41,207 nucleotides of DNA from the sequence record DRR723986_10642. One strand, given 5' to 3'. Below the pieces are notes generated by a model that searched no databases, was not told the DNA's origin, and worked only from the letters and a program-made list of their open reading frames with translations. The first letter of the stretch is position 1. Each line of letters starts with the position of its first letter. Positions 8,437 to 20,086 of the stretch are shown here, in pieces. A program made the position numbers and the translations under genes.

Positions 8437-9786
8437 ATGTCTGCGCTGGAGCGTCGCGCTGTTGCAGCGTTGGCCTGTTTATACGTATTCCGCATGCTCG
8501 GCTTGTTTATGCTGCTGCCGGTTTTACCTCTCTATGCTGCGGACTACGCTTTTAGCACACCGGTTTTGGTTGGTCTTGCGCTGGGTATCTATGGCCTCGG
8601 GCAGGCTGTGCTGCAAATTCCGCTCGGTATGCTGTCGGACAGGATTGGTCGCAAGCCGGTTATCGTGGCGGGCTTATTATTGTTCGCCGCTGGCGGTGTG
8701 CTTGCAGCATCTGCTGAATCGATATTTACGGTGATATTTGGTCGGCTTATGCAGGGGGGCGGGGCAATAGCCAGTACGCTGACGGCGACCGTTGCCGACT
8801 TAACGCGAGAGCAGCACCGCAGTAAGGCGATGGCCGCCATCGGTGTCAGCATTGGGGTTTCCTTCGCGGTAGCAATGGTGGTTGGCCCCGGCGTCGCGGC
8901 CAGCTTTGGTGTTCCGGCGTTATTCTTGTTGACCTCGGCGCTCGCCATACTTGGCGTGGTGGTGGCCGTCTTTGTGGTGCCGTCCTCGCGCATCCAGTCT
9001 CGCGACCCGAGCGCCCGACCACTGGCAAGCTTGTTGTTGCGCTGTATTCGCAGTCCGTCTTTGATGCGTTTGAATGTGGGGGTTTTCGTCCTGCATATGG
9101 CCATGATGGCACTATTTTTGGTGTTGCCAGCCCGCCTTACGGAGCTGGGGCTGGCGCCTGCCGAGCATTGGATGGTGTACTTGCCTGTTATGGCCGCCGC
9201 GTTTGTATTGATGGTTCCGGCATTAATTGTCGCCGAGAAAAAGTCATGGCAGGCGCTGATTTTGCGCCTTGCGATCGCCCTCTTAGCGGGGGTATTGCTG
9301 CTCGCGTCGGTATTGCCGTTCTCTTTGGTTTCGGTCTTGGCAGTGTTGCTGCTGTTCTTTACGGCTTTTAACTACCTCGAAGCATCGTTGCCTGCATTGT
9401 TGAGTCGCAGCGTATATGCGGGGGGCAAGGGCACGGCGATGGGCGTTTTTGCCAGCTTCCAATTCATGGGCGCGTTTTGCGGCGGTGCGCTAGGGGGATG
9501 GGTGCTGGGACACTGGGGAGAAGCTGCAGTGTTTCTTGCGGCGGGTCTTGCCGGTTTACTTTGGCTGGCGTGCACCGTCGGCATGGTGCTTCCTGTTCAG
9601 AATATTAGCGTTACCCTAAGCTGGCCGCAGGGCGGTTGGGGGTATGAGCGTTTGCGAAACGAGGTATTGTGTCTGCCGGGCACATTAGACGTGACGGTCT
9701 TTGAGGACGAGCGCCAGGCCTATCTGCGAGTATCCAAGGGCTTTGATTTAGCTCAGTTGCCCGCTGAGCTTTACCGCCGGGACTAA
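8437..9786 (+). CDS. MFS transporter, YajR-like
   Basis: About 12 hydrophobic segments, motif A-like GMLSDRIGRKP, small soluble C-terminal domain; conserved uvrA-MFS-ssb synteny; start could be TTG 8425 or ATG 8437. Confidence 0.88.
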   Translation: MSALERRAVAALACLYVFRMLGLFMLLPVLPLYAADYAFSTPVLVGLALGIYGLGQAVLQIPLGMLSDRIGRKPVIVAGLLLFAAGGVLAASAESIFTVIFGRLMQGGGAIASTLTATVADLTREQHRSKAMAAIGVSIGVSFAVAMVVGPGVAASFGVPALFLLTSALAILGVVVAVFVVPSSRIQSRDPSARPLASLLLRCIRSPSLMRLNVGVFVLHMAMMALFLVLPARLTELGLAPAEHWMVYLPVMAAAFVLMVPALIVAEKKSWQALILRLAIALLAGVLLLASVLPFSLVSVLAVLLLFFTAFNYLEASLPALLSRSVYAGGKGTAMGVFASFQFMGAFCGGALGGWVLGHWGEAAVFLAAGLAGLLWLACTVGMVLPVQNISVTLSWPQGGWGYERLRNEVLCLPGTLDVTVFEDERQAYLRVSKGFDLAQLPAELYRRD

Positions 9787-9864
9787 TGACGGGTTCCGGC
9801 AGAATCCGGTATAGTGGTGACTGTCATTTGGCAGGCCGCAGACAGTAATAATAGGAGAGTGCGC

Positions 9865-10392
9865 ATGGCGCGAGGTATCAACAAAGTTATCTTGGTGGGG
9901 AATCTTGGCCAAGACCCAGAGACTCGATATATGCCTTCTGGGGGAGCCGTGACAAATGTCACCATCGCGACCAGTGAGACGTGGAAGGACAAGCAAACTG
10001 GCCAGCCGCAAGAGCGTACAGAATGGCACCGGGTGGTGTTCTTCAATCGGCTGGCTGAAATCGCGGGTGAGTATTTGAAAAAAGGCTCAAAGGTCTACGT
10101 TGAGGGATCTCTGCGCACTCGCAAATGGCAGGATCAAAGTGGCCAAGACCGTTACACCACCGAGATTGTTGCTGCTGAAATGCAAATGCTCGACAGCCGT
10201 AGCGGTGGTGGCATGTCTGGTGGTTATGGCGACGATGGCTACTCCCAAGCGCAGGCGCCTCAGCAGCGTCGCCAAGCAGCACCTGCTCCATCAGCACCGC
10301 AGCGCCAAGCCCCTCCGCAACAGCAGGCGCCCGCCCAGCAAAACGCTCCTGCTCCTGGTTTTGACGACTTTGATGACGATATTCCGTTCTAA
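9865..10392 (+). CDS. ssb: Single-stranded DNA-binding protein
   Basis: [29 protein letters not shown]-rich linker, C-terminal DDDIPF; SD AGGAG before ATG 9865. Confidence 0.98.
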
Positions 10393-10397
10393 AAAAT
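10384..10397 (+). repeat. attL candidate (imperfect direct repeat covering the last ssb codons)
   Basis: CCGTTCTAAAAAAT, an 11/14 match to 19138-19151. Confidence 0.75.
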
Positions 10398-10409
10398 ACC
10401 ATTGATTTT

Positions 10410-10524
10410 AATGTAAAGAATATTCATGTTAGCCCCGTAATTAGGGGCTTCCTTGATTTTTGCAGTGTAAAATATTTCTTGCAGGTCTCATGGTTCTCGG
10501 CTACCTTTATAAAATGTAAAGAAT
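10410..10524 (+). repeat. Left-end 12-bp direct repeats (candidate recombinase-binding sites)
   Basis: AATGTAAAGAAT at 10410-10421 and 10513-10524; degenerate TGTAAAATAT near 10466. Confidence 0.6.
10431..10461 (+). terminator. Possible island-supplied terminator downstream of ssb
   Basis: AGCCCC-GTAATTA-GGGGCT hairpin followed by TCCTTGATTTTT (interrupted T-tract). Confidence 0.4.
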
Positions 10525-10533
10525 GGTGCCTGT

Positions 10534-11778
10534 ATGACCGGCTTAGTGACCAAGCATATTGTCAGTGCAACTGGGGAGAGGCAAAAGCTTCTTGTGGACG
10601 GCTGTTCTGGTATTCCGCTGTTTTATCCCAACCTGTACATAACCTCTCAAATCCGTGGTAGCGCAAAATCTGTAGCCACCATCCAAAGTTTCATTACGTC
10701 AATGAAAGTCCTTCACTCTTGGTCGGCGGAGTATTCGGTCGATATTGAAGGGCGCTGGAGAAGAGCCGAATGGCTGAGAATCTGGGAAGTTGATTCCTTA
10801 AGAGATTTTTGTTCTTTAGCATTGCGGCAGGCGTTGGCTCTACAAGGGAAAGTCGTAAATATAAAGCAAGGCCGCCCTGTCGCTGCAAATGTGAATTCGC
10901 CAACGAAGTATGTTCGTATGACTTTTATTGCAGATTATCTGCGTTGGCTCGCTGAAGTGCTTAATACGGAGCCCGGTGAGGGGCGGAAAATTGAAATAGA
11001 CGAGATGTATAAAAGCATCAAGTCACATCGGCCTAAGAAAAAAGGGAGGTCGGATGCCTCTCGAGAAGATAAAGGGCTTGACCCAGGATTGTTGCAGGAA
11101 GTCATGGAGGCCTCTAAGCCTGGACATGAGCGCAATCCTTATCACGGTTACTCTCTTCAGGTGCGAAATGCAGCGATTATGGCTTTGTTGCATTTTCTTG
11201 GTATACGAAGGGGGGAGCTCCTTAATCTGAGAGTTGATGATATAGACTTTATTGCCAATGAACTCCGAGTCGTCAGGCGGGCCGATAGCTCTATAGACAG
11301 TCGGATATATCAGCCGTTGGTAAAAACAGAAGAACGCATACTGCCGATAAGTAACAGGTTGGCTGAAATATTGAGCGAATATGTAACAGAGCTCCGTTCA
11401 GCATTTCCTCGAGCCAGAAAACACCCGTATTTGTTTGTGACACATAAGTCAGGCCCATATCAAGGGGAGCCTCTATCTAACAGTGGTTTTGGTAAGTTGA
11501 TGTCGGCTATGCAGGGCGTCGCGGAGGAATTCTCGCTCGTCCACGCGCATGCGTTCAGGCATAGCTGGAACTACCGCTTTTCAAAGGCTTTGGATGAAGC
11601 TGGTGATGCTCATGGCCCAGAGCGAGAAGAGCAAATGAGGTCGTACCTCATGGGTTGGAAAGAAACTTCAGGTACGGCGGCTACCTATAACAGACGGCAT
11701 ATAAAGGAAAAAGCCAAAGAAGCGATCTTGGTATATCAGCGTGGTATCGGGCGATCAGGAGTGGCTTCTGATGAATAG
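10534..11778 (+). CDS. Tyrosine recombinase/integrase, GinA-like
   Basis: Catalytic set: GIRRGELLNL (Arg), VKT (Lys), HAFRH (His-x-x-Arg), MGW, AATYN (Tyr). Confidence 0.9.
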   Translation: MTGLVTKHIVSATGERQKLLVDGCSGIPLFYPNLYITSQIRGSAKSVATIQSFITSMKVLHSWSAEYSVDIEGRWRRAEWLRIWEVDSLRDFCSLALRQALALQGKVVNIKQGRPVAANVNSPTKYVRMTFIADYLRWLAEVLNTEPGEGRKIEIDEMYKSIKSHRPKKKGRSDASREDKGLDPGLLQEVMEASKPGHERNPYHGYSLQVRNAAIMALLHFLGIRRGELLNLRVDDIDFIANELRVVRRADSSIDSRIYQPLVKTEERILPISNRLAEILSEYVTELRSAFPRARKHPYLFVTHKSGPYQGEPLSNSGFGKLMSAMQGVAEEFSLVHAHAFRHSWNYRFSKALDEAGDAHGPEREEQMRSYLMGWKETSGTAATYNRRHIKEKAKEAILVYQRGIGRSGVASDE

Positions 11779-13315
11779 TTCTACAGGGTTCAAGGTAAGC
11801 TATAAGAAAAAGTTATTCATCTCCCGGGATAATAGAGCATTTAATATAGACGATGACTCCTGGAGATTAAATAAGAATGTTGTAGTTGCCGTTAAATGGA
11901 TGTCGAGATTGGCTCCAATGGTTGAGGCTTCCTTAAAGAGTGTGCTGGCGCGCAGTGCGGAGGAGTACGCGGCGGAAACGGTAAGGGGACTCAACGATGA
12001 AACTAGGCGGTACTTCAACATCACGGGAGATAGCGAGTTTCTTGTTGACTCACTCATTTCGTATCGATCAGTCTTGTCTCGCGATGAGGAGCAAAAGCTA
12101 GCCACAATAAGGATGCTGGTGAGAAATTGGTCTGACTGGGGGTACCCGGGTATTTCTCATGACGTTATGAAACTGCTAGATGGATGGCGCCTGAGGGGGA
12201 TGGAGAAAGGAAAGGCGATAAAAAGGCTGGATCCAAAAGAGGGGCCTTTAACAGAGATCGAGATGAGTGCCCTGACTGATGCAATGTTGCAGGCCTATAT
12301 TTCTGGTCAGATAAGCCTTTCGGCTTACGCACTATCGGCAGTTCTTGTCTATACAGGTCGCAGACCAATACAAATTACAAGCCTGAAGATTAAGGATATT
12401 TGTTCACGAAAAGAGGGTGAGGTTACCGAATACTGGATAAATTTCCCAAGAGCTAAGCAGAGATTCTCGAAGTGGCGAACGGAGTTTAATGCCTACCCAA
12501 TAACAGAAGATCTCTGGAATCTGTTAAGCCTGCACGCAAGTAAAATATCGGAAAAAGCCGCGGAACTTGTTGGCGGGGAGCTAACGGGTCAGGCAGTACA
12601 AGAGCTGCCTCTATTTCCAGACTTTGATGCAGTAAGAGAGTGTAACGATACCAGCGAATTGTTGGCTGCATCCCTTGGTGATGAACTTCATTCTGAGCGA
12701 GATTTGTGCAATGAAGTGATGAGGAGGCTGGAGAATCAGCTTGATGTCTATTCGGAGCGAACAGGAAAGAAGCTGAATCTATCCACTCGGCGGTTTAGGT
12801 ACACTCTGGGGAGCAATATCGCTCGCGAGGGGAAAGGTGAGCTAATCATCGCGGAAGCGTTAGATCATTCCGACACGCAGAATGTGGGGGTTTATGTGAA
12901 AAATCTCCCTGATGTGGTGGAGCGCATCGATCGGGCGGTGGCTCTACAGCTAGCGCCATTGGCACAGGCTTTCCAGGGTGTATTGATACAGTCGGAAGCT
13001 GAGGCGGAGCGCGGTGGCGACTTAAGTAGTCGCGTTGGCAATGCTGAAGTAAATGTCGGTAATTGCGGGAGTTATGGCTTTTGTGGCGCTATGGCGCCGA
13101 TTGCGTGTTACACATGTAGGCACTTTCAGCCCTGGGTGGATGGGCCGCATGAGATCATTCTGGATGAGTTAATCGACAAGCGCGATCAAGTGTTACGTAA
13201 TACCCGTGATATTAAAGTTGCTTCCTCCAATGACCGTTTGATACTGGCCGTCGCTCAGGTTATTCAACGCTGTAATGCGAAAAAAGCCGAACGACTGCAG
13301 TTGGAGGAATGCTGA
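11771..13315 (+). CDS. Tyrosine recombinase-like protein with C-terminal Cys cluster, GinB-like
   Basis: YTGRRPIQI (Arg), RRFRYT (box II with His replaced by Arg), LDHSD...GVYV (Tyr), then GNCGSYGFC...ACYTC; ATG 11771 with AGGAG SD overlaps the upstream stop. Confidence 0.85.
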   Translation: MNSSTGFKVSYKKKLFISRDNRAFNIDDDSWRLNKNVVVAVKWMSRLAPMVEASLKSVLARSAEEYAAETVRGLNDETRRYFNITGDSEFLVDSLISYRSVLSRDEEQKLATIRMLVRNWSDWGYPGISHDVMKLLDGWRLRGMEKGKAIKRLDPKEGPLTEIEMSALTDAMLQAYISGQISLSAYALSAVLVYTGRRPIQITSLKIKDICSRKEGEVTEYWINFPRAKQRFSKWRTEFNAYPITEDLWNLLSLHASKISEKAAELVGGELTGQAVQELPLFPDFDAVRECNDTSELLAASLGDELHSERDLCNEVMRRLENQLDVYSERTGKKLNLSTRRFRYTLGSNIAREGKGELIIAEALDHSDTQNVGVYVKNLPDVVERIDRAVALQLAPLAQAFQGVLIQSEAEAERGGDLSSRVGNAEVNVGNCGSYGFCGAMAPIACYTCRHFQPWVDGPHEIILDELIDKRDQVLRNTRDIKVASSNDRLILAVAQVIQRCNAKKAERLQLEEC

Positions 13316-15339
13316 TGGGCGAGATCTTCCAGTTTATACCTAAGGCTGAATTGGATGCTAAGGCGAATGTTGATGAATTCATCCGCCGTTGTCGCCATGA
13401 TTTAACAGTCTTTGGCAATACCCTTGATTGGAATAGCTGGAATTGGAAAGGGGTGGTCAACTACACGAAAATCGGTGCACCAAGCCGAGGTATAAAACCT
13501 GAACATTTACTTGATGAAGAAATTCAGAGCTTTGCGAAAGCCTATATTCGTTACCAGCAAGGGCATAATCCGACAAAAAATATTCAAGAGATTAAAGCCA
13601 TTCGGTGTATCGAGCCTGCCTTAATCAAGGTAAAGGGGGTGGCAGATATTACTAAGGTCGAGGTGTGTGTTCTTGATGAGGCTGCAGTAGTTGCTCGAGA
13701 GCAATATGGCAGTTCTGGTTATCACGCGGGTGCGCATCTGGAGAAGCTGTCTAAGTTTTTGTCAGATAATGGGATGATCAAATCTCCCGTAATTTGGAAA
13801 AACCCTATCCCTCGATATGAGGACAGAAACCGTACAGGTGAAAAAGGCAGAGCCCATAGGGAGAAGAGGCTACCTAAAGACTATCAGTTGGAATACATGG
13901 CTGAAATGTTCGCAAATGATCTGCAGGAGCCGCGTGATCGATTTACGACTTCAATGTTCGCGCTAGGTATGTGCGCGCCGGGCCGTGTGTCCGAATTTCA
14001 GGATTTGTCGGTCGACTGCGTTCATGAGGAAATTGATAGAAAAGGGGTAAATAGGCTCGGACTGCGTTTTTATGCGGGAAAGGGTTTCGGCGCAGATATA
14101 AAGTGGGTTAGTTCACCGTTTGTTTCTATTGCGAGAGAAGCGATATCAAGGTTAATGGAACTTTCGGCTGAGGGACGAAAACTCGCCAGTTGGCTGGAAG
14201 CCCAGCCGGATAAATTTTATCGCCATGAACTGTGTCCTGATGTTGGAGAGGATGAGCCGTTATCTGCTGAGCAGATTTGTCAGGCTATGGGTTGGGTCGT
14301 CCGTGACGGAAAGTCTGCGATGTCGGTGGCTTTTAATCCGAGCAAAAAGAAAATATTGGCTATTCGACAAGCGAAGGGCGCTATTACTCTAAGGGACTTG
14401 AATAAGATCGTTCATGCGGAGCTTCCTGCAGGCTGGCCTTGGAAGAATAGAGAGCGCGGTGTGAGGTATTCGGACGCTCTGTTGTGCCTCAGAATGAATG
14501 AGCTCCACGCTAATAGGGGGGTGTCACCAGTACAGCTATGGACGCCAGATAACGCGACGTTTACATATGATCTAGGGCCAAGAAAAGGTGCGAACCAAAA
14601 GAGCATCTGGCAGCGTCATGGCTACAAAAATCCCGATGGTTCAGAAATAAAGTTTACCTCGCACCAGCTGAGGCACCTCCTGAATACAGTAGCGCAACGT
14701 GGTGATCTCGGTCAGCTGGATATTGCGATGTGGTCTGGTCGTGCCAATATCCACCAAAATCGCACGTACAATCATATGTCTGAGTATGAGGTGATAGATA
14801 AGGTCAAAAGGGTGCCTGGCTTGGTGGCGATGATGGGGCCTCTGGAAAAGGTTAAAAGTCATATGCCTGTAACCCTCGAGGACTTGGATGCTATTGGTGA
14901 GGGTATTGCTCATGTGACTGAATATGGGTTTTGTGTGCATGATTTTTCGATGGTGCCGTGCCAGAAGCATCGAGACTGCATCAACTGCACCGAACAGGTA
15001 TGTGTGAAGGGAGATGAGGAAAAGCTGGCTCGCCTCAAGATGCAGCGGGATATGACGCAAGCGCAGTTGGATAAAGCGGAGTCTGGGGTGGCTGAGGGAT
15101 TTTATGGGGCAGGACGATGGTACGAACATCAAAAGCAGACGCTGGCGCGAGCAATTGAGCTGATTCAGCTCCTTGAGTCGGATGATATTGAGGATGGCGC
15201 GATAATTCGGTTGCGCAATGACAACGAGTTTAGCCCATTGAGGCGTGAAATAGCTGCAAAGGAATCACAGCCTAGATTAGGGGCTGGCAATGCAAATAAT
15301 GAGGAAATGAGAGCTTTATTAGGAGGCGATATTGGCTAA
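13315..15339 (+). CDS. Large tyrosine recombinase-like protein with C-terminal Cys cluster, GinC-like
   Basis: APGRVSE (Arg), HQLRH, SGR...RTYNH (Tyr), then GFCVHDFSMVPCQKHRDCINC; TGATG overlap with upstream gene and GGAGGA SD. Confidence 0.85.
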   Translation: MGEIFQFIPKAELDAKANVDEFIRRCRHDLTVFGNTLDWNSWNWKGVVNYTKIGAPSRGIKPEHLLDEEIQSFAKAYIRYQQGHNPTKNIQEIKAIRCIEPALIKVKGVADITKVEVCVLDEAAVVAREQYGSSGYHAGAHLEKLSKFLSDNGMIKSPVIWKNPIPRYEDRNRTGEKGRAHREKRLPKDYQLEYMAEMFANDLQEPRDRFTTSMFALGMCAPGRVSEFQDLSVDCVHEEIDRKGVNRLGLRFYAGKGFGADIKWVSSPFVSIAREAISRLMELSAEGRKLASWLEAQPDKFYRHELCPDVGEDEPLSAEQICQAMGWVVRDGKSAMSVAFNPSKKKILAIRQAKGAITLRDLNKIVHAELPAGWPWKNRERGVRYSDALLCLRMNELHANRGVSPVQLWTPDNATFTYDLGPRKGANQKSIWQRHGYKNPDGSEIKFTSHQLRHLLNTVAQRGDLGQLDIAMWSGRANIHQNRTYNHMSEYEVIDKVKRVPGLVAMMGPLEKVKSHMPVTLEDLDAIGEGIAHVTEYGFCVHDFSMVPCQKHRDCINCTEQVCVKGDEEKLARLKMQRDMTQAQLDKAESGVAEGFYGAGRWYEHQKQTLARAIELIQLLESDDIEDGAIIRLRNDNEFSPLRREIAAKESQPRLGAGNANNEEMRALLGGDIG

Positions 15340-15736
15340 GCACCTGACTGAGCTGGATATAGAAAAAATTCTTGGTGTTATAGACGGTTGGCAAGGTAAG
15401 CTGACGTGGGACAGGCTATGTGATGCGGTCATAGGGCAAATAGGTAAGCGTCCAACTCGACAGTCGTTAAATGCGAACAAGCGGATCAAGCAGGCTTTTC
15501 TTGATAAGAAAACTAGGTTAAAGGGCGACTTTCAAGAGACAAAGACCCCGCCATCCTTGGCAATCGCAGGTCAGCGAATAAAACGCTTGGAAGAAGAGAA
15601 TCTTCGACTGAAAGCTGAGAATGCCAGGCTTCTTGAGCAGTATATCGTTTGGCAGTACAACGCTTATCGGCATGGTTTAACTGAAGAGCAGCTCAACTCT
15701 GAGCTGCCAGTTATCGATAGAGAAGCTAGTCGATAG
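15332..15736 (+). CDS. Small helical/coiled-coil accessory protein, GinD-like (TnpC-like)
   Basis: TTG start with AGGAGG SD overlapping the upstream stop; N-terminal helical segment (LTWDRLCDAV...PTRQSL) and heptad RIKRLEEENLRLKAENARLLEQ. Confidence 0.75.
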   Translation: MAKHLTELDIEKILGVIDGWQGKLTWDRLCDAVIGQIGKRPTRQSLNANKRIKQAFLDKKTRLKGDFQETKTPPSLAIAGQRIKRLEEENLRLKAENARLLEQYIVWQYNAYRHGLTEEQLNSELPVIDREASR

Positions 15737-15749
15737 TTGTTACTGTGTT

Positions 15750-16826
15750 TTACTCATTTATTACAATGATCGGGTGGGCTCTATCATTCGGCGAGCCAGG
15801 AAAGCTTGAGTAATAAACGGAGTTTTTGTCTGTTGTGTTTGGCCTGTCGGGGCCGTAGACGCTTTCCATGCTGAAAAATCTTTGGCCCGTTTCAGAGGTT
15901 ATAAATCCACTGTAGTTATTTTGAATAAGGTTGTTTACAGTGCCGACTTCGCGCTCTACAGATAAATAGCATAGCTGCTCGCATTGCTTTGCTATCTCTG
16001 TAGCGTTTGGGCGTGATTTGTCGTCGTATTCCAAGCAGCTTTCTATGACGGTTTGAAGCTCTTTCGACAATGGTGAGAGCTGGGGGTTGTTTGTCATGAA
16101 TGCCGGCCATTCTTTCCTGTTTCTGTTCTTTACATTTACAGCGGCTTCGAGATAAACGCCAAATGGGAACTCACCCGTCAAAAGTTTGAACATCATCGCG
16201 CCTAGTGACCATATGTCTACACTTTGTCCAACCTGTTCGCCTGAGTTTCGGAACATCATCTCAGGGGCCATAAAAGGAAGGGCTCCTTTTATTGTGCCAG
16301 AGTTTGACTGAGTTATTTCCCCAGCCTCTGCGGCTTCGTCAAATACCTGCTCAGTCAGGGTTGCGATTCCGAAGTCTGTGATTTTTAGCTCATTGATATT
16401 TACACCGGAAGTTGTCATCACATTACTTGGTTTTAGATCGCGGTGTATGACTCCTGCACGATGTGATGCTTCAACACCTTTAGCTAAGAGATGGAGTATT
16501 TGTGCTCCTAGATGGGGGTCAAATATGCCCAATTTCTGCTGTTTTTCATCTAGAGTTTCCCCTTCTATAAATTCTTCAATGAGGAATTCGGCTGCTTCCG
16601 TGTCAAGGTAGTCTAGGGTTTTAGCTATGTTGTGGTGGTTTACCTTGGCGGCCACGATAGCGCTACTTCGGAACCTTTTGGCAGATTGTTCGTTTTGAGG
16701 TGTTTTGAGGGCGACGTCAATTTCCAGGAGGGTGTCTAATGCGAGATATACATCCTGCATACCACCTCGGCCTATGTGTCCTTTGACTATGTATCTTCCG
16801 TCTATTTCTGTTCCGGGCTTTATCAT
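15750..16826 (-). CDS. Hanks-type Ser/Thr protein kinase with C-terminal cold-shock/OB-like domain
   Basis: GRGGMQDVY, VALKT, HRDLKPSN, DFG, FMAPE, DIWSLG; tail REVGTV...YSGFI...RFFS; start ATG 16826 in an ATGA overlap with the upstream kinase. Confidence 0.9.
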   Translation of the reverse strand: MIKPGTEIDGRYIVKGHIGRGGMQDVYLALDTLLEIDVALKTPQNEQSAKRFRSSAIVAAKVNHHNIAKTLDYLDTEAAEFLIEEFIEGETLDEKQQKLGIFDPHLGAQILHLLAKGVEASHRAGVIHRDLKPSNVMTTSGVNINELKITDFGIATLTEQVFDEAAEAGEITQSNSGTIKGALPFMAPEMMFRNSGEQVGQSVDIWSLGAMMFKLLTGEFPFGVYLEAAVNVKNRNRKEWPAFMTNNPQLSPLSKELQTVIESCLEYDDKSRPNATEIAKQCEQLCYLSVEREVGTVNNLIQNNYSGFITSETGQRFFSMESVYGPDRPNTTDKNSVYYSSFPGSPNDRAHPIIVINE

Positions 16827-17896
16827 GCTGTGACCTCCGGGTTTGAAACATCGAATGTCATAAATTTGCGGTGCTTCGCGTTGCCGAAAGCAATTACACA
16901 GCATGCGGGTAATTCGCTGCCCGCAGTGGCCAGTTTGTTGTTAATTTTCACCGTTCCTGATAGCTGGCCGACATTGAAAGAGGTGCCGTCGTAGTGGATT
17001 TGCATAGTTCCTAGAGTGCCGCATGTAACATTAACGGAAGGCGTTTGAGCATCGATCTCATGAGTATTTCCGTTCATCACTAATAAGGCGCGGTGTTGGC
17101 CGGCTACGATGTGGCGTCTAATCAGCGCCTCCACATCGCGCATTTCTGGTCTTCGCTCGGGGTTACTGTCGATGCATCGTATTATGATTTCTATGACTTC
17201 TTTTGGTGCGCCAGATAGGAGCGACTCGATGCTATCTGCTGGGGCTGGAACTGGGGGTCTGTCGAACAACTCTTGGGGGAGTTTGTTGCTGATTAGATTT
17301 AGTGCAGTTATGCCAAATGCGTATACGTCCACAGCTCTGTCGAAGGCTATATTAGCTTCGCGCTTCCACAGCTCTGGAGCCATAAATATCGGTGTTCCAA
17401 TAACATTTACGGTTGAGGCTTCCGGTCCTTCGTGTCTTGCCAATCCGAAATCTAGAATCTTAATTACATTGTCAGAGTTCACCAGTAGATTATTGGGTTT
17501 GATATCTCGGTGAATAACGCCTGCTGCGTGTATTTCGCTCAGCCCGCATGCGATCTGCCATAGACTCCTAAGGTAATGCTCGTCTGAAGAGTATGACCCT
17601 GGAGTCAGTTGATTGCCCCTGATGCACTCTAGTACAAGAGCCTTTCTGCTTTCGCCATTCTCATCTATATTTACGACATCGAAAAGCTGGACGACATGTT
17701 TTGAGCGAACCTTGATTAGGGCCTTTTGTTCGTCGAGTAGCCTTCTTTGATCTTCACCTGGTTTCAGTAACTTAAGGACTACATTTCGTTGTAAGTGATT
17801 ATCAATGCAGTGAATGATGTCGCCCATCCCTCCTTGTTCTGATTGACCTGTCGGGCTGTACCGTTCAGGGAATATCACGATCGGACTCCTTTCCAC
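16823..17896 (-). CDS. Hanks-type Ser/Thr protein kinase with C-terminal beta-rich (FHA-like) domain
   Basis: QGGMGDI, VVLKL, alphaC Glu in LLDEQKAL, HRDIKPNN, DFG, GTPIFMAPE, DVYAFG; GTG start overlaps the phosphatase TAG (TAGTG). Confidence 0.9.
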   Translation of the reverse strand: MERSPIVIFPERYSPTGQSEQGGMGDIIHCIDNHLQRNVVLKLLKPGEDQRRLLDEQKALIKVRSKHVVQLFDVVNIDENGESRKALVLECIRGNQLTPGSYSSDEHYLRSLWQIACGLSEIHAAGVIHRDIKPNNLLVNSDNVIKILDFGLARHEGPEASTVNVIGTPIFMAPELWKREANIAFDRAVDVYAFGITALNLISNKLPQELFDRPPVPAPADSIESLLSGAPKEVIEIIIRCIDSNPERRPEMRDVEALIRRHIVAGQHRALLVMNGNTHEIDAQTPSVNVTCGTLGTMQIHYDGTSFNVGQLSGTVKINNKLATAGSELPACCVIAFGNAKHRKFMTFDVSNPEVTA

Positions 17897-18921
17897 TATT
17901 TGTCTTTGGGGGTGGGCATAACGTCTATTTCAAATTGTTCATGCTTAGAGCTCTTTGTATTTTCCTTCGTTGCCTTTCGTGGTCGTTTTTTTTGTGGTGG
18001 CTTCAGGGGCTCTAATTTGGGATCTGGTGGCGTGGTGCTCAGCTTGTTTGGGAGCGCAGCTCCACCCTTGGTGTCCTGTTTTGTCCAAGTGATTATGAGT
18101 GACCCGAAAGGGTCATGTATTTCGATGCCTGGTGAAGGCTCTTGCAGTGCTTCTGTCAATTTATTTATCGATACATAAGCGGCTGTCGCATTGTCGGGGC
18201 CTCCTCTCCATTTTGCATATGCTAGCAATTGTTGGACAGATGTTGCCGGTGTTGATGCATTTAGGGCAATGTCGCTGAGAACAGCCTGATCAATAAAATG
18301 AACGCCGTCCGATGTAAGTATCAAGCTCTCTAGGTTGTCTGAGACAACGCGGGTGTGGGCGTCTAATCCCTCGCCCATCCCAATAAATTGTATGAGTGCG
18401 CGCCCGTGCCCTCCAACAGCCTCCTCGAGTGAGTCATCCGTCGTTAGTCGTAGCAGCTTTGTTTGAGCTTTAGGCTGAGTCGCATAAATGCGGCTGTCGC
18501 CAACGTTAACTGTATATGTTCTGTTTTTATCAGTAAAAATGACAGCTGATAGTGTGGCTCCGCCGGAGCCTTGGCAGAAGTCGAAAACCGTTGAGTTGGC
18601 AGTATTTGCAGCAAGTTTGAGTCTTTCTTCTGGGGGGCGGTTCCTGTGACTTATTAGACAGTTGAAAAATGACCCAATCGCCAACGCGGCGCACTCTTCT
18701 CCATTATTCATTCCCCCCATGCCGTCTGTTAACGCAATTGCCGTAAATCTTGGGAAGTTTGGTGAATTAGAGTCTACTTTCAGCATCGCAATGCGATCCT
18801 GGTTTTCCTTTCTGATTAGCCCGATGTCGGTGCCTAATGCAGTAGAATGGTTCTCAAGCAAGGAGTCTCCGGATTCTGGTACGGCCCTGAGTAACCAGCG
18901 CGATATTTTATCTGTTAACAT
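17896..18921 (-). CDS. PP2C/PPM-family Ser/Thr phosphatase
   Basis: TDIGLIRKENQD, DGMGG, GATL, NVGDSRIY, LTSDGV, GPDNAT; Pro/Lys-rich C-terminal tail; likely start ATG 18921 (341 aa). Confidence 0.92.
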   Translation of the reverse strand: MLTDKISRWLLRAVPESGDSLLENHSTALGTDIGLIRKENQDRIAMLKVDSNSPNFPRFTAIALTDGMGGMNNGEECAALAIGSFFNCLISHRNRPPEERLKLAANTANSTVFDFCQGSGGATLSAVIFTDKNRTYTVNVGDSRIYATQPKAQTKLLRLTTDDSLEEAVGGHGRALIQFIGMGEGLDAHTRVVSDNLESLILTSDGVHFIDQAVLSDIALNASTPATSVQQLLAYAKWRGGPDNATAAYVSINKLTEALQEPSPGIEIHDPFGSLIITWTKQDTKGGAALPNKLSTTPPDPKLEPLKPPQKKRPRKATKENTKSSKHEQFEIDVMPTPKDK

Positions 18922-18999
18922 AACTGTCCAGTCTTGTTGGTTGCAGGTCGTTAGCCAAAGTCCATGGTCGTCTGTTGGTGACTCTCGGAATGTTGGAAG

Positions 19000-19028
19000 A
19001 TAGTATGTTGTGGTTATAGAACTGTAAA
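19000..19028 (-). promoter_or_regulatory. Candidate sigma70 promoter of the phosphatase-kinase-kinase operon
   Basis: Minus strand TTTACA (19028-19023), 17 bp, TACTAT (19005-19000), about 80 bp upstream of ATG 18921. Confidence 0.6.
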
Positions 19029-19052
19029 GTTTGGCGGGCGAAAAATAGATTG

Positions 19053-19064
19053 CTTTACATTTTA
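19053..19064 (-). repeat. Right-end inverted copy of the left-end motif
   Basis: CTTTACATTTTA is the exact reverse complement of TAAAATGTAAAG at 10510-10521. Confidence 0.55.
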
Positions 19065-19137
19065 ATGTATTTTCGTACCGTTTTGAGGGATAAGTCATTA
19101 ATTGTATTAATGTTTTTGTTTTGTTAGGTAGTTGCAA

Positions 19138-19151
19138 CCATTCTAAGAGAT
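19138..19151 (+). repeat. attR candidate (imperfect direct repeat)
   Basis: CCATTCTAAGAGAT; sits exactly at the switch from AT-rich island end to GC-rich host DNA. Confidence 0.75.
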
Positions 19152-19225
19152 GTCTTCGCAGTTAGTGAGCGCCGATGGGACGGCGGCGGGATTAACGTCC
19201 CAGAAAAGTGTTGTGCAATGTCTAG

Positions 19226-20086
19226 ATGAAGGCGGCAGTGGGCGAAACGGTGAGCGTGTTACTACTCTGTGAAGACTCCGCGTTAGCGGCGGCCCTGCAA
19301 GCGCAGCTGAACTCCCGGGGCCGGGAATTGCTGCAACTAAAGCCCTCTGAATTATTGGCGCAACCGCACTTGGCCGACGGTGCGATTCTCGTTAACGCCC
19401 TTTTAACACCGGGCGAACCCGTCACCGACGCCGTCGTTGATATTCAGGCGGAGCTAATAAGTGCTGTAGGCCCGAAACTGCGGTGTTATTTGGGGCTGAG
19501 TGATGCCCGGGTTGTCGCGGAGTTGGATCGCGAAGAGCCGGTGGCAGAAAATGCCACCCCAGCCCCTCAAGGTCAGGATGCTGTCCGTCTGGCGGCAATG
19601 GAAGAGCAGCTGCTATCTGCGCCATTGCAGGCGCTTATCCTGCGCACGGGGCCACTTATTGCGACCGACGGTGATAATTTACTGTCTGCCTTTATCAAGG
19701 CGCTTAAAGCGGGCCAAGCGCTTGGTCTTGATGATTCTCAGCAGAGTGCTCCGACGCCGGTTGGTGACCTTGCCCGGGTGTTGTCGGCAATGATTGACCA
19801 GCTTTCCTGTGGTGCGCTGTGCCGGGGTATCTATCACTATCAAAGCAGCGGTGCCACTAGCGCCTATGCTTTTGCCGAAGTGGCCTACGCTCATGCCGGG
19901 CAATATCTGGCGACTCCCCCCGATATTTCAATTGATGGCGATGGCTGGGGGTGGGTGATGGATTCGCGGGTACTCCGCTGTGAGCGTTTATTACGTAATT
20001 TCGGCATTAAGCAATTAGCGTGGCGATCCTGGTTGCCCAAAATGATTAAAACCCTTTGTGAGGATGATTGCGATGAGCGCCTCTGA
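19226..20086 (+). CDS. RmlD-like sugar-nucleotide-binding domain protein (degenerate SDR fold)
   Basis: RmlD-like C-terminal half (LILRTG, APTPVGDLARV, GIYHY...SAYAFA, FGIKQLAWRSWL); canonical GxxGxxG and YxxxK absent. Confidence 0.7.
   Translation: MKAAVGETVSVLLLCEDSALAAALQAQLNSRGRELLQLKPSELLAQPHLADGAILVNALLTPGEPVTDAVVDIQAELISAVGPKLRCYLGLSDARVVAELDREEPVAENATPAPQGQDAVRLAAMEEQLLSAPLQALILRTGPLIATDGDNLLSAFIKALKAGQALGLDDSQQSAPTPVGDLARVLSAMIDQLSCGALCRGIYHYQSSGATSAYAFAEVAYAHAGQYLATPPDISIDGDGWGWVMDSRVLRCERLLRNFGIKQLAWRSWLPKMIKTLCEDDCDERL

Follow-up and report, generated by a model that had tools for sequence, protein, structure and literature searches.

GInts are genomic islands defined by a ginABCD operon for three integrase-like proteins plus a fourth, small one, all of which are required (PMC5385486). 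According to the same description, their cargo extends from the ginD stop codon, starting immediately before or after it, and is followed by a 3' end that is short and AT-rich; these islands are flanked by imperfect direct repeats, and 6 of the 11 GInts analyzed there lie at the end of ssb, whose product is unaltered and whose end overlaps attL. In Escherichia coli, the yjcB/ssb interval corresponds to hotspot #39, which was occupied in 38 of 1292 genomes and is described as a site of GInts carrying defence systems (Hochhauser et al. 2023, PMC10121019). Here, we describe an 8,754-bp island in a stretch of 41,207 nucleotides from sequence record DRR723986_10642; this whole stretch is called the window. 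The island is inserted at the last codons of ssb, and we consider it probable that it is an intact GInt of the ssb-targeting clade with an operon of the kinase-kinase-phosphatase (KKP) type as its sole cargo.

KKP clusters were defined by a search rule that asks for PP2C, Pkinase and Pkinase genes of 900-1300 bp each, in this order and on one strand; in addition, the kinase PfkA has to carry a cold-shock domain (CSD) with a GFI/GFA motif and the kinase PfkB an FHA domain (Guo et al. 2024, PMC11341870). More than 90% of these clusters were reported from prophages, and 70 of the 114 non-prophage clusters are located next to integrases or transposons.

The island and its empty sites

The island occupies positions 10393-19146 of the window (one repeat copy counted), between ssb (9814-10392) on the left and an RmlD-like gene (19226-20086) on the right. 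It is flanked by imperfect direct repeats of 9 bp, namely CCGTTCTAA as the attL core (10384-10392, + strand) and CCATTCTAA as the attR core (19138-19146, + strand), which are identical at 8/9 positions. The left copy comprises the last two ssb codons plus the stop codon, and the empty sites of related genomes (L001-L005) end likewise; both the SSB C-terminus ...DDDIPF and the stop codon are unaltered by the insertion. The GC content of the island is about 47% (46-49%) as compared to about 55-58% in the flanks.

Empty sites were searched by scanning genome contigs with the RmlD-like neighbour. The scan gave 214 pattern matches, five of which encode a relative of this protein, resulting in five loci from Spongiibacter or close relatives with neighbouring-gene identities of 51-98%. 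The block was absent from all five loci; in each of them the ssb stop codon is directly followed by the sequence found right of position 19146 in the window. In Spongiibacter marinus DSM 17750 (L001), the left and right flanks are 99.1% and 98.7% identical to the window, the site is empty, and what the two alignment blocks have in common is precisely the 9-bp repeat. The order in the window is ssb ...ATTCCGTTCTAA, the island, and then CCATTCTAA-GAGATGTC..., whereas the empty site reads ...ATTCCGTTCTAA-GAGATGTC... with a single copy of the repeat. It is these empty sites, and not the statistics of the repeat, which place the insertion beyond chance. The island is present in a Spongiibacter marinus-like strain and absent from its closest relatives.

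Seven genes are encoded within the island: four overlapping open reading frames (ORFs) on the + strand and three tightly coupled ORFs on the - strand. All remaining ORFs of at least 60 amino acids in the block are located inside or antisense to these seven genes. Searches with Pfam, NCBIfam, PADLOC and PHROGs identified no phage structural, relaxase or replication gene among the seven proteins, and long terminal inverted repeats were not found. No tRNA gene was detected in the window and no Rfam match in the region 9500-20000.

The gin-like operon

The first gene of the operon (10534-11778, + strand) encodes a ginA-like tyrosine recombinase of 414 amino acids, in which the motifs GIRRGE ... 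HAFRH ... GW ... TYNRR were recognized by eye. It matched Pfam Phage_integrase (E 2.1e-13) and a PHROG integrase family (E 3e-20); a phmmer search against PDB sequences returned no match. The second gene (11741-13315, + strand) encodes a ginB-like recombinase of 524 amino acids when the whole ORF is counted; judged by homology, its start is probably the Met codon at 11771, which would give an overlap with ginA of 8 nt. This protein reached 594.7 bits with the NCBIfam model NF041502 'site-specific integrase' (cut-off 350) and E 1.1e-5 with Pfam Phage_integrase. It shows the motifs TGRRP ... RRFRY ... LDH ... GVYVKN followed by a Cys cluster, and keeps candidates for the catalytic R, R, H and Y.

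The third gene (13309-15339, + strand) codes for a large ginC-like protein of 676 amino acids for which no Pfam, NCBIfam or PHROG family was found. An AlphaFold (AF2) model was built from 34 sequences with a mean pLDDT of 73.9 and a pTM of 0.50. A Foldseek comparison of this model with the PDB returned Cre as the top match (E 2e-4, probability 1.00, at low TM-scores of 0.20/0.36), followed by XerH, an integron integrase (IntI) and the Tn1549 integrase. Judged by family matches for the first two proteins and by the model for the third, the three large proteins share the recombinase fold, and the third is assigned as ginC-like. Residues R226 (in APGRVSE), H452, R455, H456, W475 and Y487 are invariant in all 34 homologues; they were put at catalytic positions by motif pattern, the model having a pLDDT below 50 at residues 462-484. 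The spacing of H, R, W and Y resembles that of Cre. If this placement is right, GinC of the ssb-targeting clade keeps the full signature and might be a third active recombinase rather than a dead scaffold.

A cluster of Cys and His residues follows the catalytic Tyr in both GinB (window 13050-13200) and GinC (14910-15005, residues 535-565) and is conserved in both proteins. In GinC, the cluster is invariant across the 34 sequences, and AlphaFold confidence is low there. It may form a metal-binding module.

The fourth gene (15332-15736, + strand) overlaps ginC by 8 nt and encodes a ginD-like protein of 134 amino acids with a heptad-rich, coiled-coil-like C-terminal half. Pfam gave only weak coiled-coil matches (E 0.027-0.12); a C-terminal coiled coil has been described for GinD (Idola et al., PMC10214605). 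Between the end of ginD at 15736 and the cargo, which begins at 15750, there is a gap of 13 bp. As read by eye from the published Fig. S1, the box II regions of the first three proteins correspond in order to those of Pseudomonas stutzeri GinA, GinB and GinC, and a segment of the ginB-like protein matches the RFRHTLG segment of P. stutzeri GinB.

Relatives of the element

A tblastn search with the 676-aa protein against plasmids retrieved 88 records, the best of which was plasmid pPAD8 of P. aeruginosa (NZ_CP061074.2). There, four genes encoding proteins of 405, 504, 663 and 145 amino acids are located after the plasmid ssb gene, and the four proteins of the window align with them over their full length with 44, 49, 54 and 62% identity. 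The pPAD8 element is the closest annotated relative that we found; it differs from the island in being plasmid-borne, about 11 kb long and loaded with other cargo (hypothetical proteins). A published description of it was not found.

A blastn search with the gin region against E. coli genomes yielded short conserved stretches only, at 5% coverage in 376 of 5426 genomes, a figure which is not a count of GInts. E. coli MIN9 was found through such a weak match. Its gene order is uvrA, ssb, four genes (415, 520, 677 and 139 amino acids), avs4, an AbiGi-family gene and yjcB, and the proteins of the window are 39, 43, 46 and 50% identical to the four gene products over the full length. The MIN9 GinC (WP_000807724.1) is listed in the 'GInt_gammaproteobacteria' sheet of Idola et al. 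(PMC10214605), which was obtained by PSI-BLAST from reference GinC and GinD. By this indirect test, all four proteins of the island are homologous to curated GinA-D.

The MIN9 locus also differs at its stop codon: ssb ends with TAG at attL, and the displaced native copy at attR reads TGA (L007, 9690-9724 and 21613-21621). To judge from these two sites, the ssb stop codon of MIN9 was changed by the insertion of the GInt; att-site variants of this kind have been ascribed to heteroduplex resolution (PMC5385486).

The core of the island repeat is the CCGTTCT core of published ssb-targeting GInts, for which Table S3 gives the repeats CCGTTCTAAT/CCGTTTTGAAT, CCGTTTTAATT/CCTTTTTAATT and GTGCCGTTCT (PMC5385486). 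Imperfect repeats at the same core were also found in the E. coli and pPAD8 elements. The island therefore resembles ssb-targeting GInts, including those of E. coli hotspot #39, in having four overlapping genes that agree in size and order, in the use of the last ssb codons as a target, in the repeat core and its imperfect duplication, in a cargo that directly follows the fourth gene, and in an AT-rich 3' end. With the MIN9 element it further shares the carriage of defence-type cargo, which in MIN9 consists of Avs4 plus AbiGi. It differs from the published ssb-targeting GInts by its single KKP-type operon and by its host family, the Spongiibacteraceae, for which the survey of Idola et al. lists four replicons and no GInt (PMC10214605). 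The closest relative of its GinC, 94% identical, comes from a metagenome-assembled genome of Spongiibacteraceae. At 8.75 kb, the island is at the small end of the size range, the smallest GInts in Table S3 being 8.3 and 9.7 kb long (PMC5385486).

An original prediction, made from the letters of the window alone, had proposed a GInt at 10384..19146 with an overlapping operon for three tyrosine-recombinase-like proteins and a helical 134-aa protein. The alignment with the empty site of S. marinus DSM 17750 placed the ends exactly there, and the predicted layout of four-gene operon, cargo, AT-rich right end and imperfect direct repeats was recovered throughout, with integrase families for the first two proteins and a Cre/XerH-like fold for the third. 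The prediction also held in that phage structural, relaxase and replication genes were not detected; the empty ssb/RmlD-like site, which it had proposed to look for in related genomes, was found in all five. As for the fourth protein, its presence and its overlap with ginC were borne out; its helical character is suggested by the weak coiled-coil matches and the heptad-rich C-terminal half.

The cargo operon

The cargo comprises about 3.2-3.4 kb on the - strand and runs from the right end towards ginD in the order PP2C phosphatase, kinase, kinase. The first gene (17896-18921, - strand) encodes a PfpC-like PP2C phosphatase of 341 amino acids if translation begins at the Met codon at 18921, a start chosen by homology; the ORF itself extends to 19137. 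The protein keeps the PP2C metal-binding motifs NQD, DGMGG, SDG and DNAT. It matched PF13672 (E 2.6e-5, 24.3 bits at a cut-off of 24), NCBIfam Stp1 (E 1e-25) and phrog_17277 (E 4.3e-70), and is 38% identical to the PP2C of Klebsiella phage Kp4865-2, with an alignment that starts at ORF residue 74.

The second gene (16823-17896, - strand) encodes a PfkB-like Ser/Thr kinase of 357 amino acids with intact HRD and DFG motifs and catalytic Lys. Matches were obtained to Pkinase (E 1.5e-36) and, over the full length, to phrog_2361 (E 3.9e-68); the second gene of the Kp4865-2 triad is its counterpart, with 48% identity. The C-terminus of this kinase is a conserved domain of about 100 amino acids.

The third gene (15750-16826, - strand) encodes a PfkA-like Ser/Thr kinase of 358 amino acids from the Met codon at 16826, the ORF extending to 16904. 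It contains the VALK Lys, HRD and DFG, matched Pkinase with E 2e-44 and shows 61% identity with the third member of the Kp4865-2 triad. The ATG of the present gene shares bases with the TGA of the kinase gene upstream (ATGA), and the other junction of the cargo operon overlaps by 1 nt. The last 76 amino acids were modelled by AF2 with 45 homologues, giving a pLDDT of 92.8. The top Foldseek matches of this model were cold-shock domains (E from 7.5e-4, probability 1.00, TM up to 0.78), among them Unr CSD9, Bc-Csp, CspA and YB-1 in the PDB, and the motif SGF[I/A], which reads SGFI in the window, is conserved in the alignment of this C-terminus. According to the predicted structure, the last cargo kinase resembles PfkA in having a C-terminal cold-shock domain that bears the GFI motif. 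A phmmer search of both kinase C-termini against the PDB gave chance matches only, and the ESM Atlas returned no usable match for either.

With lengths of 1026-1242, 1074 and 1077-1155 bp, all on the - strand, the three genes agree with the KKP search rule in order, strand and size. They resemble the KKP of Pseudomonas phage Pf6 (PMC11341870) in gene order, in gene lengths within 900-1300 bp, in the PP2C_2 domain, in the kinase with CSD and GFI motif and in tight translational coupling; unlike the more than 90% of KKP clusters found in prophages, the present operon is borne by a GInt.

Related triads at other loci

Klebsiella phage Kp4865-2, a P2-like record, carries the orthologous triad (38/48/61% identity) beside an integrase gene and a CI repressor gene, and an orthologous triad is also present on an E. 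coli P2-like phage-plasmid. In the table of representative islands of Hochhauser et al. (PMC10121019), PD-T4-6, the PADLOC label that the cargo kinases receive, appears in two rows, both of them P2-like prophages. Nine plasmid records showed a PfkB-like match, and six loci from them were examined. Triads were located in defence-gene neighbourhoods at 4/6 of these loci; gin genes were found within 7-9 kb of the triad at none of the six. The triads on Agrobacterium, Rhizobium and Xanthobacter plasmids adjoin ABC-three-component, Shedu and RelE (toxin-antitoxin) genes, and the triad on a Pantoea plasmid has no defence gene among its annotated neighbours.

The Agrobacterium/Rhizobium triads (L009 9428-12981; L011 9425-12978; L013 6181-7629 and 11213-16218) occur in a recurring defence-island neighbourhood, with either an 'ABC-three component system' or a Shedu SduA-domain gene and an SbcCD-like pair as neighbours. 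On the Xanthobacter plasmid (L012 6237-10754), an inserted IS5 transposase separates the phosphatase gene from both kinase genes; this insertion could uncouple the antitoxin from the toxins.

The closest relatives of the two cargo kinases are only 77-78% and 62% identical, as compared to 94% for GinC, a difference suggesting that this backbone is combined with other cargo elsewhere.

Non-coding ends of the element

The left non-coding end of 141 bp (10393-10533, + strand) contains ACCA (10398-10401, + strand) 5 nt after the left repeat, three forward TGTAAA boxes (10412-10417, 10466-10471 and 10515-10520, + strand) and a terminator-like hairpin (10431-10449), which now follows ssb about 40 bp after its stop codon. 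The right non-coding end of 216 bp (18922-19137) is AT-rich; the last 60, 120 and 250 bp contain 70, 69 and 63% AT, respectively, as compared to 53% for the whole island. In it lie a site resembling a promoter for the cargo operon (19028 to 19000, - strand), a forward TGTAAA box (19023-19028), an inverted one (19054-19059) and AGGT (19126-19129) 8 nt before the right repeat.

These ends (window 10393-10533 and 18922-19137) were compared with those of the pPAD8 element (L006 6149-6295 and 16985-17141) and the MIN9 element (L007 9725-9882 and 21465-21621). Hairpin and boxes align in all three elements. The left boxes are found at offsets 20/74/123 in the window and 20/74/115 in pPAD8, so that these two share the offsets 20 and 74, and E. 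coli variants are found in the same alignment columns. Furthermore, AGGT stands 8 nt before the right repeat and ACC(T/A) 5 nt after the left repeat in 3/3 elements; the AGGT / ACCT pair is another feature that links the island to the pPAD8 element. Since a hairpin occupies the corresponding position of the pPAD8 element and of the E. coli element, ssb apparently keeps a terminator after insertion.

The case for the TGTAAA boxes is made by their conserved offsets in three elements and not by the count of the 9-mer AATGTAAAG, which, with one mismatch allowed, occurred nine times in the whole window against 8.07 expected and is not enriched. Promoter and terminator scans likewise showed no enrichment over shuffled sequences, and the corresponding features have annotation value only. 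In the circular form, AGGT and ACC(T/A) would form a dyad around the repeat, as in core-type recombinase sites. We regard the conserved boxes and the AGGT/ACC pair as candidate recombinase binding sites; in those parts of the GInt literature that were available, no description of these candidate end motifs was found.

Beyond the island, the window consists of chromosomal core genes, namely secY, rpsD, rpoA, uvrA, an MFS transporter gene, ssb, the RmlD-like gene, mog, moeA, fabB, fabA, pgi, obg, proB and lipopolysaccharide-core genes. In the product of the RmlD-like gene (19226-20086), the RmlD substrate-binding match covers residues 102-277 only (E 1e-20), and the first 100 residues have no Pfam match. 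This gene is conserved and intact in the empty-site relatives; hence, it was not truncated by the island.

Discussion

Several observations weigh against the assignment as an intact GInt with KKP-type cargo. With 9 nt, the direct repeat is one nucleotide shorter than the published range of 10-17 nt (PMC5385486). The connection to P. stutzeri GinA-D runs via the E. coli orthologues and the reading of Fig. S1 by eye, and the mobility of the island is deduced from its presence or absence among relatives and from its intact genes. GinC has been described as missing the first catalytic Arg (Bardaji et al. 2017, PMC5385486) and as 'lacking catalytic tyrosine / RHRY' and non-catalytic (Idola et al., PMC10214605), whereas the GinC reported here has an invariant candidate for every catalytic position. 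In the cargo, an FHA domain was not matched in the C-terminus of the PfkB-like kinase by Pfam, by PDB searches with the sequence or a five-sequence profile, or by the ESM Atlas, and PF00498 (FHA) occurred in none of the best 120 homologues of this kinase. Similarly, PF00313 (CSD) occurred in none of the best 120 homologues of the PfkA-like kinase; Pfam searches at E up to 10 with the kinase C-termini, GinC and GinD gave noise and neither CSD nor FHA. PADLOC matched generic kinase models (PD-T4-6, mad6, MkoA and PglW) and matched neither the phosphatase nor any of the gin proteins; no system can be called from it. Finally, the likeness to the Pf6 module is drawn from published descriptions of PfkA, PfkB and PfpC, and a role of the KKP-type operon in phage defence would follow by analogy.

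The operon might also act mainly as an addiction module or as a regulator instead of a phage defence, in the latter case on island excision or on host nucleoid proteins, comparable to the relation of KKP and MvaU in Pf prophages. The Pf6 module does in fact combine lysogeny control via MvaU with a tripartite toxin-antitoxin function (PMC11341870), addiction modules are frequent GInt cargo (PMC5385486), and the operon is the only cargo here, converging on ginD with a gap of 13 bp. Yet three KKP modules provided phage defence in two hosts (PMC11341870), homologous triads lie near defence genes at 4/6 plasmid loci, and nothing found here ties the kinases to the Gin proteins. We therefore regard a GInt with an operon of mainly this function as unlikely.

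It is very improbable that the four-gene module belongs to another recombinase-trio element, i.e. a strand-biased circularizing integrative element (SE), a Gamma-Mobile-Trio, a RIT or a Tn554-like element. In all of these, site-specific insertion goes together with two or three tyrosine recombinases. The trio of Gamma-Mobile-Trio islands consists of GmtY, GmtZ and GmtX; the ginA-like ORF gave a weak GmtY match of 31.3 bits as compared to a cut-off of 340, and no ORF matched GmtZ or GmtX (NCBIfam). RIT and Tn554 elements encode three proteins (RitABC; TnpA, TnpB and TnpC; PMC10214605, Table 1), as opposed to four in the island, where long terminal inverted repeats are also missing. SEs (intA-tfp-intB-srap) are similar in plan, with four core genes for recombinase-fold proteins and a small coiled-coil auxiliary protein as the fourth, site-specific insertion, a lack of transfer genes and a crossover spanning about 6 bp (PMC10214605); moreover, the third protein of the island appears to keep the catalytic motif, as does the large IntB. 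In SEs, however, the non-catalytic protein is the second one; in the second protein of the window, candidates for R, R, H and Y are retained, in contrast to Tfp. The proteins of both element types fall into separate clusters, and the list in which the third protein's E. coli orthologue occurs is that of the GInts, separated from the SEs by this clustering, and not that of the SEs (Idola et al., PMC10214605). Target and repeat core at ssb also match those of published GInts.

Even less probable is that the block represents what is left of a prophage or phage satellite which had formerly borne the KKP module. The cargo proteins do match prophage-derived PHROG families, the closest annotated triad was found in a P2-like phage record and prophages hold more than 90% of the KKP clusters (PMC11341870); against this, none of the seven ORFs is a phage gene, the junctions are exact, the flanks are not decayed, and the backbone is an intact gin operon common to elements whose cargo is unrelated, for instance Avs4 plus AbiGi in E. 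coli. An ancestral block that the relatives have lost by deletion is hardly credible: only five relatives are available and presence or absence alone gives no direction, but the core is duplicated at the junctions and single in the empty sites, the GC content of the island is about 9 points below that of the flanks, E. coli and a Pseudomonas plasmid have homologous elements at the same ssb site, and the empty state was found in 5/5 relatives at 51-98% neighbour-gene identity.

If the island is a GInt, as we think probable, GinA, GinB, GinC and GinD would jointly recombine attL with attR, as expected from work on other GInts, to form a circle with an attI site. The circle would re-integrate at attB, the last ssb codons, by staggered cuts about 6 nt apart within C(G/A)TTCTAA. 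Mismatched bases of attI and attB in this overlap would account for the imperfect repeat, with its G/A difference between the copies. Insertion would restore the ssb stop codon and supply a new terminator. Transfer genes being absent, the GInt must travel by transformation or on other elements.

By comparison with the Pf6 KKP, the phosphatase would act as an antitoxin that restrains two Ser/Thr kinases, which are toxic in combination. Inhibition of the phosphatase by a phage replication protein would release the kinases, which may then phosphorylate many host proteins, so that growth stops, phage production is blocked and the infection is aborted. The same toxin-antitoxin logic would also stabilize the island in its host. 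The Pf6 KKP controls prophage activation by phosphorylating the nucleoid silencer MvaU (PMC11341870). By analogy, the KKP-type operon might be the island's own switch and link abortive defence with the GInt's excision and escape; phage attack or stress would tip the balance between kinases and phosphatase and thereby alter gin expression or the activity of the Gin proteins. We consider such a switch rather doubtful.

The original prediction had called the cargo, about 3.2 kb in its estimate, KKP-like and had hinted at its novelty in a GInt. The extent of the cargo and its PP2C, kinase and kinase genes were confirmed, and the name is largely justified by gene order, gene sizes and the CSD-GFI kinase, though not by an FHA domain, which was not detected. 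As to novelty, a full-text literature search found 16 papers, and none of the 15 listed names a GInt as a KKP carrier, two that contain both 'gint' and 'kkp' being on other subjects; however, defence-carrying GInts and KKP clusters linked to integrases or transposases have been published. Supplementary Data 2 of the KKP study lists a cluster of Spongiibacter tropicus DSM 19543 with the neighbour class 'Transposase' (PMC11341870). The island is a clean example of a known element type with a known module type at a known target site and not a new system.

What distinguishes the island is that it is a very compact and cleanly bounded natural GInt; it has seven genes and exact junctions, and its site is empty in a relative with 99% identity. 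As stated by Idola et al. (PMC10214605), laboratory work has yet to reproduce the transposition of a full-length GInt. The island thus offers a convenient model for studying how GInts recombine and move, and whether KKP-type modules work outside prophages. Two leads emerge from it, a possibly catalytic GinC and the conserved end motifs. Provided that the assignment is correct, ssb-targeting GInts would join the vehicles that spread KKP-type modules, and the range of GInts would extend to the Spongiibacteraceae, which leaves current concepts of these elements unchanged.

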